A stretch of DNA of 4,339 nucleotides from a virus (taxonomy: Duplodnaviria; Heunggongvirae; Uroviricota; Caudoviricetes), in the IMG/VR virus record IMGVR_UViG_2548876530_000006; one strand, 5' to 3'. A model generated the notes under the pieces. The model saw nothing but the letters and a program-made list of their open reading frames with translations, did not search any database and was not told the origin of the DNA. The translations under genes were made by a program, and so were the position numbers. Shown here in pieces: positions 511 to 4,339 of the stretch (position 1 is the stretch's first letter; every line of letters begins with the position of its first letter).

Positions 511-1073
511 CAGTAAAACCTTTGTCTGCGGACAGGATTGCGGTATGAGGAGTACGGACTTGTCGCCAGTGTGTCGCGATATGCCCGACGGATACCCTCA
601 GAAAACAGCACAGAGAAATACTGTGCGCGCGACGGGTCTGACCATGAAACCCCGGTCTGCATGAACAACCGTTCAAGCGCCCCTGCAGCCACTTCTTCAG
701 ACCATGCCCGCAGTTCATCCTGCACCTGACGGCTCCCTGCTTTCGGAGCAACGGCATAAAGCACACTCACCTCTCCGGGCGAACAGGCAAAATGCATTAC
801 CCGCCCCGGGCGGATTTCCACATCATGACCGGCAAAAAGCTCACGCCCGTCAGCGAGGATACGAATAATATGTACGCACTCTTCATTCTCCGCGTCATAT
901 GGCAGCACACAGTCCTCTCCGGCTGACGGTGACAGCGTGGCTTCACGGCGGCACAACAGGGACTGACGGCAGAATGCCACTGCCGACATGGATAACGCAT
1001 CCGTCATCATAATGTTCAGCGGACCACTGATATGGCGACGGACATACGGTAAAAAATCAGTCAGTTCCGCCAT
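510..1073 (-). CDS. Hypothetical phage head-completion/neck-module protein, ~187 aa (ORF track lists a 207-aa version starting at 1133)
   Basis: Long minus-strand ORF. The preferred start is ATG 1073..1071 (MAELTDFLPYVRRH...), with GGAG (complement of 1084-1087) about 10 nt upstream and a 17-nt overlap with the upstream gene's 3' end. The 1133 start would need a 77-nt overlap and has no SD. The 3' end is coupled to the next gene by ATGA. Function is inferred from position downstream of the capsid gene only. Confidence 0.65.
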   Translation of the reverse strand: MAELTDFLPYVRRHISGPLNIMMTDALSMSAVAFCRQSLLCRREATLSPSAGEDCVLPYDAENEECVHIIRILADGRELFAGHDVEIRPGRVMHFACSPGEVSVLYAVAPKAGSRQVQDELRAWSEEVAAGALERLFMQTGVSWSDPSRAQYFSVLFSEGIRRAYRDTLATSPYSSYRNPVRRQRFY

Positions 1074-1517
1074 GCTGTTCAGTCTCCGCAACACGACGGC
1101 GAAATGCCTCACGCACACGGACACGAAATGCATCAGCCGTTTCTTTCGGGTCTTTGTGAATATTCAGCTCTTCTGCCTCACACAACGTTGCCAGCCGTGC
1201 GGACGTGAGTTTGCTCAAATCCACATCCTGACCACCAACGCTAACCACAAAACTGTTCTCCGCTTCTGCAAGAGCAAGCTGTTCTCTTTCCTGCGCCTGC
1301 TGTGCCTGCCGCAACTGCTCATCCTGTTGTTGCTTTTTGAGCACACCATCAAGCTCTTCATGACGAACCCAGACATCCGGAAAGGCCAGCAACTGCCAGG
1401 CAAGCGCGCTGTCAACATGCACCGGCTCAAGACGCGGGAACAGTGTACGACTCCCGGTAAGGGTATCCTTTTCACGGGTTTGGGGCCGATATAGACAACG
1501 GCAATTTTCTCGCTCAT
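1057..1517 (-). CDS. Phage protein with a Q/E-rich coiled-coil segment, reading frame interrupted (N-terminal 16 codons in one frame, remaining ~137 codons in the -1 frame); possible pseudogene, sequence error or recoding site
   Basis: ATG 1517..1515 sits 6 nt downstream of GGGG (complement of 1524-1527), immediately after a terminator hairpin, and opens a frame with good codons (MSEKIAVVYIGPKPVK). After the A4 run (plus-strand TTTT 1469-1472) that frame fills with rare codons (AGG, ATA, TTA, GGA, AGA) and C/W/R-rich junk, while the -1 frame becomes clean coding sequence (..KDTLTGSRTLFPRLEPVHVDSALAWQLL..KKQQQDEQLRQAQQAQEREQLALAEAE..ETEQHGGTD) ending at TGA 1059..1057. The 181-aa ORF in the track (1057..1602) is the same -1 frame extended upstream across the hairpin and into the preceding gene. 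Confidence 0.5.
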
Positions 1518-1531
1518 ATAATTCCCCGGAT

Positions 1532-1554
1532 AAAAAAGCCCGCATGACGCGGGC
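1532..1554 (-). terminator. Rho-independent terminator-like hairpin (minus-strand transcript: GCCCGC-GUCAU-GCGGGC followed by UUUUUU)
   Basis: Perfect 6-bp GC-rich inverted repeat at 1538-1543 and 1549-1554 with a 5-nt loop, followed on the minus strand by a U6 tract (plus-strand A-run 1532-1537). It lies 13 nt after the stop of the 129-aa gene and just before the SD and ATG at 1517. Confidence 0.6.
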
Positions 1555-1567
1555 CGGAAGGTTTATA

Positions 1568-1957
1568 TCAGTATCCCACCACGGTATAACGCAGCAGAAC
1601 ATTCAGGGTACCGGTCGCAGCAGCTGTCTTAATGGTGACCGTAACCAGCTCCCCGTCACGCAGTGTGGTGTACGGCTCCACGGGCACATATCTGGCAAAT
1701 TTTGCAGAAACAGCTTCGCTGTTATCGATGAGAACATGCTCACCGGACTTAATGCTGACGGTTGCAGTACCCAGACCGCCCGTTGAAACCAGTTGCAGTG
1801 AGTTGATACGGATACCAACTGGCAGTGAAAGAAGATGAATAACACTGTCCGCTTCCGCAGCGTTCACTGTAAACACACCTTCTGCCACCGACTCATTACC
1901 GTGCGTACCTGAATAAATCCGCTCACTCAGTGATGGAGCAAGGATAGTCTTTGCCAT
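1568..1957 (-). CDS. Small phage virion protein, 129 aa; candidate head decoration/auxiliary capsid or head-tail adaptor protein (function not established)
   Basis: ATG 1957..1955 preceded by AGGAG (complement of 1967-1971) 9 nt upstream. Protein-like composition, rich in V/T/G/S/A (MAKTILAPSLSERIYSGTHGNESVAEG...LLRYTVVGY), suggestive of a beta-rich fold. It sits directly after the capsid gene and is bracketed by two terminator-like hairpins. Confidence 0.7.
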   Translation of the reverse strand: MAKTILAPSLSERIYSGTHGNESVAEGVFTVNAAEADSVIHLLSLPVGIRINSLQLVSTGGLGTATVSIKSGEHVLIDNSEAVSAKFARYVPVEPYTTLRDGELVTVTIKTAAATGTLNVLLRYTVVGY

Positions 1958-1972
1958 AATTAATGACTCCTG

Positions 1973-1995
1973 AAAAAGCCGGGCGATAACCCGGC
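1973..1995 (-). terminator. Rho-independent terminator/attenuator-like hairpin downstream of the capsid gene (minus-strand transcript: GCCGGG-UUAUCG-CCCGGC followed by UUUUU)
   Basis: Perfect 6-bp GC inverted repeat at 1978-1983 and 1990-1995 with a 6-nt loop, followed on the minus strand by U5 (plus-strand A-run 1973-1977). It lies 16 nt after the capsid stop (2012-2014) and runs straight into the SD of the 129-aa gene. The U-tract is short, so termination is probably partial. Confidence 0.55.
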
Positions 1996-3248: not shown

Positions 3249-4187
3249 TTACCCGAGTTTTTCCAGAATCGCGTCAATTTCAGCGTCCGTCATGCCTCGC
3301 ATGGCTGCTTCAATTTCGGTATGGGAAGCACCAAGTAACCGTTCAAAATTATCACCGGTTCCGACGGAAGCCGTGTTGCCAAGCTCTGACGGGGAAGCAG
3401 GCACTGCCATCTCCCGTTCAGCGGCTTTCACTTTTTCTTCCGCAGTTTTCCGGATATCCGTGTTGTCTGCCTTGTCATCAGAAGGCGGCTCACTGGCTTC
3501 ACCGAAAGCAAGCTGCGTACGGCGGGCCACTTCGGCGAAACGTTCAGTGAGCGGTTTGTCTTTCCATGCGGGGTCATTCTGGAGCTTCCCGTCGATGGAT
3601 ACGGCAACCGAGAAGCGATCCGGATCGGAGTTCTGCCACGTTTTCAGCACCGGCACGGCATTCATCGCATCAAGAACCGGTGATAAATCCTCACCACCAT
3701 GACCTTCTGCCTGCTGTGCTGATTGCTGAACACGGGACTGGAGATAGTTATTTTTACGGATGAGCGAAGCCACCGCGTCACCAATTTCCGGATACATCTC
3801 CCTGATACGGGCAATCTTCTCATCAGAGATTTTTTCGTTTTCCGGTAACGGTGCGGGTTTCATACCGGCCTGGTGGATCTGAGACGTCAGCAGTTCAACC
3901 AGGCGTTTTTCTTCGGCTATCTGTCCCCGAAGAAGTGCGGCTTCCTGTTCGGCCCGCTGCTTACCGGAACGTTCAGCCTCAAGGACTTCATAGGGAATGA
4001 CGTGTTTACCATCGCGGGTGAGCACACCCTTCGCCTCCGGCTCCTTCACGTCCTGCGTCTGCTCAGCACTGGCATCCGGCGTCGGTGCCGCAGTGTTATC
4101 GCCCGTCTGTGTCTGTGCTGCCTCATCCGCATGATTTTCTGTGGCGGCCTCTGTCACGCCGTCCTGTTCGTGACCGTCAATATCCAC
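3249..4187 (-). CDS. Phage capsid scaffolding-like protein, 312 aa, acidic with a disordered N-terminus and helical core; apparent GTG start
   Basis: Minus-strand ORF ending at TAA 3251..3249. The upstream in-frame stop is TAG (complement of 4215-4217), and the first in-frame ATG is not until about codon 108, so the start is most likely GTG 4187..4185, preceded by G-rich SD-like sequence (GGAAGGGCTTGGGGAT). The N-terminal ~50 residues are D/E/T/A/Q-rich low-complexity, followed by heptad-like helical segments (AEQEAALLRGQIAEEKRLVELL). No protease-like motif recognised. Confidence 0.6.
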   Translation of the reverse strand: MDIDGHEQDGVTEAATENHADEAAQTQTGDNTAAPTPDASAEQTQDVKEPEAKGVLTRDGKHVIPYEVLEAERSGKQRAEQEAALLRGQIAEEKRLVELLTSQIHQAGMKPAPLPENEKISDEKIARIREMYPEIGDAVASLIRKNNYLQSRVQQSAQQAEGHGGEDLSPVLDAMNAVPVLKTWQNSDPDRFSVAVSIDGKLQNDPAWKDKPLTERFAEVARRTQLAFGEASEPPSDDKADNTDIRKTAEEKVKAAEREMAVPASPSELGNTASVGTGDNFERLLGASHTEIEAAMRGMTDAEIDAILEKLG

Positions 4188-4339
4188 ATCCCCAAGCCCT
4201 TCCAGCCATTTTTCCTACGTTGTTCCGGGTTTCGTTCTACCCGTAAACTTCAAAATACCATAAACTAACTACCGCATGGTCTGTTATTCGGACGATCGAT
4301 GTTGAGTAATAAGGCTTATCGCTGCCCCGCGACTAAGCG
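4188..4339 (-). promoter_or_regulatory. Non-coding leader upstream of the head-gene block; candidate promoter/regulatory region (no promoter confidently identified)
   Basis: All three minus-strand frames and all plus-strand frames carry stop codons across about 4200-4339, and the region is more AT-rich than the coding sequence. It contains two TAAACT hexamers (4244-4249 and 4261-4266) and an extended -10-like TGGTATTTT on the minus strand with no good -35 box. Confidence 0.3.

Follow-up and report, generated by a model that had tools for sequence, protein, structure and literature searches.

In the head region of a Shiga toxin (Stx)-type prophage, the gene for the capsid cement protein is flanked by two conserved hairpins of the intrinsic-terminator type, which we lean towards regarding as mostly read through and as bounding a block of abundant RNA from the genes of the capsid shell. 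The DNA in question, here called the window, is a stretch of 4,339 nucleotides from the virus record IMGVR_UViG_2548876530_000006. It is 99.5% identical to a prophage of Escherichia coli O104:H4 and 89–98% identical to short-tailed Stx-converting phages of the genus Traversvirus, such as Stx2-86, 933W, Sp5/VT2-Sakai, and phi24B, and it shares the head module of 933W at 89–99% identity. What it holds is the set of head genes of a lambdoid prophage of the Stx type, one with a short tail. Every gene of the window lies on the minus strand, and all hairpin and gene coordinates are given on that coding strand (Table 1). The two hairpins, T1 and T2, bracket a gene of 129 amino acids (aa): T1 stands between it and the gene for the major capsid protein (MCP), and T2 between it and the gene that follows.

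The initial annotation, made from the letters of the window, had described two perfect 6-bp stems of G-C pairs followed by five or six U residues on the minus strand. Both hairpins are present (1995-1978 and 1555-1537), each with its six G-C pairs, to which RNAfold adds a seventh, wobble pair: the stem of T1, GCCGGG(U)/(G)CCCGGC, has one U-G pair besides the G-C pairs and closes a loop of 4 nt, and that of T2, (G)GCCCGC/GCGGGC(U), closes a loop of 5 nt. The two features that define an intrinsic terminator are thus found in both, namely a GC-rich stem-loop on the transcribed strand (seven pairs each, six of them G-C, with loops of 4–5 nt) and a U tract directly 3' of the stem. The fold-energy check proposed at the time gave −13.9 kcal/mol for T1 (z = −3.4 against shuffles) and −13.8 kcal/mol for T2 (z = −2.8), comparable to the annotated pR'-proximal terminators of 933W (−12.7 to −14.8 kcal/mol). 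A Shine-Dalgarno sequence (SD) and a start codon do follow each hairpin as described, although the SD after T2 (GGGG at 1527-1524, ahead of the ATG at 1517) is weak; the SD before the cement gene is kept as AGGAG or AAGGAG across enterobacterial lineages. When terminator-like sites in the window were ranked, T2 came first and T1 second. A looser scan returned 13 such sites, weak matches being common. Under a strict rule (a perfect 6-bp all-GC stem, a loop of 3–8 nt, and at least five T among the next six bases), T1 and T2 were the sole matches on the coding strand, with none on the opposite strand of the window, and 2000 dinucleotide-preserving shuffles yielded a mean of 0.0025 matches per strand. 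Neither hairpin is annotated in the 933W record, and a literature search gave no paper describing them. An Rfam search of the window returned no match, and on a clean copy of the region it returned a sub-threshold match to Trp_leader on T2 alone (E = 0.82, 20 bits against a threshold of 41).

The conservation of T1 and T2 was assessed in loci encoding relatives of the 129-aa protein, for which viral contigs, genomes, metagenome assemblies, and GenBank phages served as sources. Clustering at 85% protein identity, followed by removal of three clusters with partial or frameshifted open reading frames (ORFs) (L046, L054, and L101; L-numbers are our handles for loci and lineages), left 21 lineages, ranging from E. 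coli to Vibrio phage douglas 12A4 (32% protein identity) and marine contigs. With a U-tract criterion of at least five T in eight bases, a terminator-like hairpin occupies the T1 position, the MCP-cement spacer, in 15 of the 20 evaluable lineages, two more having a GC hairpin without a U tract. At the T2 position, after the cement gene, one is found in 17 of 21 lineages, 14 by scripted scoring and three (the window, L069, and L080) confirmed separately. Shuffled spacers pass the same rule 0–10% of the time. In sense orientation, the T run invariably follows the stem on its 3' side, and the stems come in at least 11 sequence versions at T1 and at least 13 at T2 (for example GGCAGGC/GCCUGCC, CAGCAGG/CCUGCUG, and AGCCCAC/GUGGGCU). 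This turnover of stems at a fixed position, with the U tract retained, is the mark of selection on a structure acting at the level of RNA or transcription. RNAalifold found no consensus on MAFFT alignments of T1 and T2 (14 lineages each) because stems of differing length and sequence were not brought into register, and conservation was therefore scored lineage by lineage against shuffles. T1 and T2 are real, evolutionarily conserved hairpins, a sound but fairly ordinary feature, and their earlier assignment to the intrinsic-terminator type is upheld by canonical anatomy and by conservation under selection. Citrobacter-type relatives have a fourth terminator-like hairpin, in the scaffold-MCP spacer (L004 1651-1670, L055 1655-1672, and L061 1653-1672); in them, every junction from the portal gene through the gene after the cement gene carries a hairpin. 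The spacer at 1996-2011 of the window and its homologues are 67–94% pyrimidine in all enterobacterial lineages (CCUUUCC, CACCUCU, CUCUCU).

The 129-aa ORF (1957-1568, stop codon at 1570-1568) is genuine and conserved, and its product matches vb_24B_31 of phi24B at 97% identity along all 129 residues. When the features of the phi24B record are counted, they fall in with the numbering of a recent preprint (portal gp72, MCP gp69, and the 129-aa homologue gp67), in which gp67 was found with electron cryomicroscopy (cryo-EM) to be the cementing capsid protein (bioRxiv 10.64898/2026.04.10.717836). There it consists of an N-terminal arm and a 4+4 Ig-like domain, forms trimers at the junctions of three capsomers, is anchored by His19, and occurs nine times in each asymmetric unit of the shell (T=9), with 540 copies in total at 1:1 with the MCP (bioRxiv 10.64898/2026.04.10.717836). 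The protein of the window shares His19 and the position of its gene directly after an MCP gene of the N4-gp56 type, and the cement role is already published for a near-identical phage. An AlphaFold2 model of the window protein (predicted local distance difference test score, 87) has eight main strands and an N-arm strand, in keeping with the beta-sandwich (Ig-like or jellyroll) plus N-terminal arm of cement-type folds, and its top four Foldseek matches are the cement proteins of KHP40, GP4 (gp1), KHP30, and Pam1. The predicted arm and 4+4 beta-sandwich are shared with phi24B gp67 and with solved cement structures (GP4 gp1, PDB 8h89_J; Pam1 gp6, 7eel_H; KHP30/KHP40, 7dn2 and 7dou), although the window protein has no detectable sequence similarity to the GP4, Pam1, and KHP proteins. 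Pfam holds no family for it, and searches of PDB sequences with the single sequence and with a profile, in a PDB copy without phi24B entries, gave chance-level matches only. For the MCP of the window, the nearest solved relative is that of GP4, whose gp1 is anchored by an Asp and lacks the 'hugging' N-arm according to the preprint (bioRxiv 10.64898/2026.04.10.717836). The initial annotation had expected a high-copy protein of the decoration or cement type, and both the identity to gp67 and the independent structural match, in which phage cement proteins rank first, bear it out. By this near-identity, the 129-aa gene encodes the trimeric cement protein of a T=9 Stx-phage capsid, needed at 1:1 with the MCP, the trimer state being taken from phi24B. 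Dispensability is common for accessory cement proteins, and ORF63 / ECs1224 of Sp5, with which gene order equates the 129-aa protein, is not among the nine genes essential for plaque formation of that phage. In a TARA marine contig (L077, 629-1875), three tandem cement paralogues of 131, 132, and 135 aa, 25–40% identical to one another, follow the MCP gene and precede a conserved 'MS..VVYIG.K' gene; the sole strong hairpin of this contig lies after the MCP gene.

RNA levels along the head genes were taken from strand-specific RNA-seq of strain EDL933, which gives reads per kilobase per million (RPKM) for each gene of 933W under 11 conditions (Landstorfer 2014, Table S4). All ratios are medians over the 11 conditions, after mapping of Z-numbers to ECs-numbers. 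From the portal gene to the scaffold-like gene, RPKM rises 6.6-fold (range 2.6–15.5; Wilcoxon p-value=0.001), a step that coincides with a third hairpin, T0, located after the portal gene and just beyond the end of the window. Across T1, from the MCP gene to the cement gene, the ratio is 0.83 (p-value=0.2, not significant). Across T2 it is 0.53 for the next gene and 0.47 against the mean of the next three genes (p-value=0.002). The scaffold-MCP-cement block stands at 2.7 times the RPKM of the upstream genes and 3.4 times that of the downstream genes, and, although these cultures were mostly uninduced, no part of the late region has more abundant RNA than the segment from T0 to T2. Of the stepwise drop that had been proposed (capsid, then the 129-aa protein, then the rest), the first step did not appear and an approximately two-fold fall at T2 did. 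Since the MCP and the cement protein are equimolar, no drop is needed at T1, and one there would be counter-productive. Literature searches found no usable RNA-seq of an induced Stx phage, but strain Sakai has been analysed by Term-seq (Sy et al., 2020).

In 933W, the Q gene, the late promoter pR', qut, and tR'-type terminators are annotated about 15 kb upstream of the head module, and no signals are annotated in the head module itself; placement in the late operon downstream of pR'-qut is observed in 933W, the window ending short of pR'. RNA polymerase modified by a lambdoid Q protein resists terminators along the operon. Scans of the window and of the 20-kb late region of phi24B found no sigma-70-like promoter on the coding strand, and the essential Sp5 genes ORF65, 67, 70, 71, 79, and 80 lie beyond both hairpins, so T1 and T2 must be leaky. 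Late transcription of Stx phages depends on Q antitermination (Sy et al., 2020), and given this dependence and the essential neck and tail genes downstream, we favour the view that the hairpins are mostly read through in lytic growth. What has been observed is that the hairpins exist and are conserved, which protein the gene encodes, and how RNA is distributed in 933W; this read-through by Q-modified polymerase, and the split between termination and 3' protection in what follows, we infer. The late operon would be transcribed from pR' by Q-modified, terminator-resistant RNA polymerase, and T1 and T2 would act through their net effect on RNA 3' ends. At T1 there would be little or no fall in RNA, in keeping with an equimolar MCP and cement protein; at T2 there would be a roughly two-fold fall toward the low-copy neck and tail genes, owing to residual termination, to shielding of the upstream mRNA from 3'-exonucleases, or to the two together. 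T0 and the leader that follows it, together with T1 and T2, would thereby delimit a scaffold-MCP-cement RNA block several-fold above the flanking late genes. A transcript dose of two- to three-fold cannot by itself account for a protein ratio of approximately 45-fold, and translation signals must therefore contribute; the SD is a strong AGGAG for the MCP and cement genes and a weak GGGG for the next gene.

Several points weigh against this mechanism. All RPKM values stem from one study of low depth, in which lysogens of 933W, not of this prophage, were sampled mostly without induction, and gene-specific effects on RPKM are confounded with position. A U tract would be superfluous for pure 3' protection, and its conservation argues for real termination. 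T0 ought to protect the terminase-portal RNA just as well, yet that segment is the scarcer one; a further factor, be it the leader or an internal promoter, must contribute. Finally, an internal promoter, if present, would launch polymerases without Q, and T1 and T2 could then be true attenuators.

In 20 kb of late-region sequence from phi24B, the three top terminator-like sites on the sense strand are T0, T1, and T2, and T0 is kept with differing stems in four lineages (E. coli, Citrobacter, Edwardsiella, and Vibrio). It is followed by a leader of about 120 nt, of which the window holds a noisy, truncated copy, with clean copies in L001 (5940-6085) and L068 (8556-8696). The leader contains a second hairpin, TAAGC...GCTTA, with compensatory changes in 7 of 21 pairs predicted by RNAalifold, and two near-invariant blocks, TTCGCAnGGGCAGCGAYACGCC and TCGGATCTATCCGAYAAAYAG just before the SD of the scaffold gene. 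A pattern derived from the leader matched 86 viral contigs, once in each and in 23 versions, including a Vibrio phage. The leader matched no Rfam family and no sigma-70 consensus, and when GGGCAGCGATACGC was read by eye as sigma-54-like (GG-N10-GC), the reading did not hold for the versions of Vibrio and L162. This strongly conserved, undescribed leader is the least expected observation of our analysis, and it is a lead. Tentatively, and at lower confidence than we attach to read-through hairpins around the cement gene, T1 and T2 might be 3' boundaries of a shell-protein cassette (scaffold, MCP, and cement) within the Q-antiterminated operon. T0 and the leader might then form its 5' boundary, the leader acting as an internal factor-dependent promoter or as an RNA-stabilizing or processing element that gives the 6.6-fold rise, and T1 and T2 terminating or capping the transcripts.

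The reading put forward by the initial annotation, that T1 and T2 are leaky intrinsic terminators whose successive partial termination sets a descending dose of MCP, 129-aa protein, and the rest, draws on the canonical anatomy, on the U tracts conserved across lineages, on the approximately two-fold lower RPKM after the cement gene, and on precedent in T7 (T-phi after gene 10) and phiX174. A promoter in the leader after T0, if present, would also supply terminator-sensitive polymerases that lack Q. We nevertheless consider it unlikely. The operon is probably Q-antiterminated, the equimolar MCP and cement protein and the non-significant change across T1 speak against the first step, and the ratio between about 540 shell copies and 12 neck copies, about 45-fold, is far above any two-fold step. 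Moreover, T0 precedes a 6.6-fold rise in RNA rather than a fall, and a pure attenuation ladder therefore cannot account for the pattern; in the form 'capsid > 129-aa protein > rest', it is not supported, in view of the equimolar proteins and the rise across the third hairpin. Fail-safe insulation, in which the hairpins halt polymerase not modified by Q (polymerase that leaks from pR' or that starts spuriously at internal sites in the lysogen) and have no role in lytic ratios, strikes us as more doubtful still. It agrees with the little loss of RNA across T1, with the conserved U tracts, and with strengths equal to those of the tR'-type terminators that silence the late operon in lysogens, but it leaves unexplained why the same two junctions flanking the cement gene are used in lineages as distant as Vibrio and marine phages, and why late-region RNA is highest between T0 and T2 in mostly uninduced cultures.

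Two further explanations are of a different kind. Larger folds might mask the downstream SD until a ribosome finishing the upstream gene unmasks it, and such translational coupling would give MCP and cement protein at 1:1. Minimum free energy folds do pair the pyrimidine tract after the MCP stop codon with the cement AGGAG across T1, with SD pairing probabilities of 0.85–0.99 in seven lineages and a stop-to-hairpin tract that is 67–94% pyrimidine. However, shuffled tracts pair equally or more (means 0.68–0.87, with 39–99% of shuffles reaching the observed value) and random flanks already give 0.5–0.6. Since shuffles pair the SD equally well, the signal is compositional and not a specific structure; we rejected coupling across T1 on this ground, the pairing being no higher than that of a shuffled flank, and we rate masking as improbable. 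As for functionless inverted repeats that arose by chance in short spacers, the 13 sites of the loose scan are what one would cite for them, but the strict rule gives two matches against 0.0025 expected, both in the only two spacers of the stretch, and the hairpins are kept with differing stems across approximately 20 lineages. These two tests effectively refute chance already, and we give it next to no weight.

Terminators after capsid genes are well known from T7 (T-phi after gene 10) and phiX174 (after genes J, F, G, and H). As in those phages, T1 and T2 place a GC-rich hairpin and a U tract directly after a high-copy structural gene, with essential genes downstream, so that leakiness is required. 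Unlike them, the host RNA polymerase would be modified here by the Q antiterminator, there are three hairpins, one of them ahead of the high-copy genes, and the RNA step at the post-capsid hairpin T1 is about nil by 933W RPKM. The lambdoid tR' terminators (933W pR'-qut-tR'; StxS) belong to the same phage family and resemble T1 and T2 in energy and U-tract length, and Q-modified polymerase would be expected to ignore T1 and T2. In contrast to tR', a regulatory switch adjacent to its promoter, T1 and T2 are found 15 kb into the operon, where structural genes meet. Stem-loops at 3' ends that stabilize the upstream part of a polycistronic mRNA include the malE-malF REP element, the Rhodobacter puf hairpins, and hairpins that RNase III leaves at the 3' ends of T7 mRNAs. 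The present case resembles these in that an intercistronic hairpin goes with a higher steady-state RNA level of the upstream than of the downstream genes, and differs from them in that the U tract, unneeded for stabilization, is conserved.

The remaining features of the window concern the neighbouring genes (Table 1). The MCP gene ends at the stop codon at 2014-2012. The scaffold-like gene is the first gene of the abundant RNA block, and the 335-aa gene that follows the portal gene and precedes the MCP gene acts as the true scaffold would. In the window its 5' end is damaged: positions 4207-4339 carry approximately 20 indels and substitutions in 133 bases relative to the otherwise identical O104:H4 prophage, which removes the true start and leaves a 312-aa ORF beginning with GTG in place of the 335-aa protein. 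A contig end of low quality would look like this. In the gene that follows T2, a run of A at 1469-1472 (minus strand) has four residues against five in the O104:H4 prophage, causing a frameshift; the missing A is the sole difference from that prophage within 1057..1517. The four-A version occurs in none of 83 fetched loci, and the five-A version occurs in 19. A programmed frameshift was rejected, since the four-A run was seen nowhere but in the window and indels riddle one end of this contig; the likely cause is a sequencing error in the homopolymer or else a private mutation. An Sp5 mutant deleted for the homologous ORF64 has reduced infectivity. For the 187-aa gene and the SU10-adaptor-like gene (1-1073 of the window), published assignments disagree: in the Sp5 genetics paper, ORF65 (the 187-aa gene) is a possible scaffold and ORF66 (the SU10-adaptor-like gene) is not among the essential genes, and in the phi24B cryo-EM preprint, the corresponding gp64 and gp62 are modelled among the virion components, and two tail adaptor rings with a common fold are described.

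Table 1. Features of the window and their coordinates, listed in the direction of transcription.
Feature	Position	Strand	Remarks
Portal-scaffold leader, noisy truncated copy	4188..4339	−	block GCAGCGATAAGCC at ~4325-4313; many indels relative to L001
Scaffold-like gene	3249..4187	−	PHROG 479; 335 aa in relatives; 1008-nt coding sequence annotated in L001
MCP gene, 404 aa	2012..3226	−	N4-gp56 / Phage_capsid_3 family (PF13252, E = 4.6e-87)
T1, terminator-type hairpin	1973..1995	−	GCCGGGUUAUCGCCCGGC (1995-1978) plus U5 (1977-1973); between MCP stop codon and cement gene
SD of cement gene, AGGAG	1967..1971	−	9 nt 5' of ATG at 1957; visible in the sequence itself
Cementing capsid protein gene, 129 aa	1568..1957	−	predicted N-terminal arm and 4+4 beta-sandwich; His19
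T2, terminator-type hairpin	1532..1555	−	GGCCCGCGUCAUGCGGGCU (1555-1537) plus U6 (1537-1532); 12 nt past cement stop codon
Gene after T2, 153 aa, frameshifted	1057..1517	−	Sp5 ORF64 homologue; intact coding sequence in L001 at 8822-9283
Virion protein gene, 187 aa	510-1073	−	
SU10-adaptor-like gene	1-510	−	start only

The toxin genes of enterohaemorrhagic E. coli travel on short-tailed Stx phages, yet how these phages control their morphogenetic genes is for the most part uncharted. Taken by themselves, the hairpins and the cement protein are nothing unusual: post-capsid terminators are textbook knowledge, and the role of the protein is published for phi24B. The analysis brings out the conserved hairpins that bracket the cement gene, a distinct and abundant scaffold-MCP-cement RNA segment, and an undescribed conserved leader at the start of that segment. 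Should the leader contain an internal promoter, the polymerases launched from it would be without Q, and the attenuator model would come back into play. Together, the hairpins and the leader offer concrete, mutable sites for asking how one Q-driven transcript yields approximately 540 shell copies and 12 neck copies.
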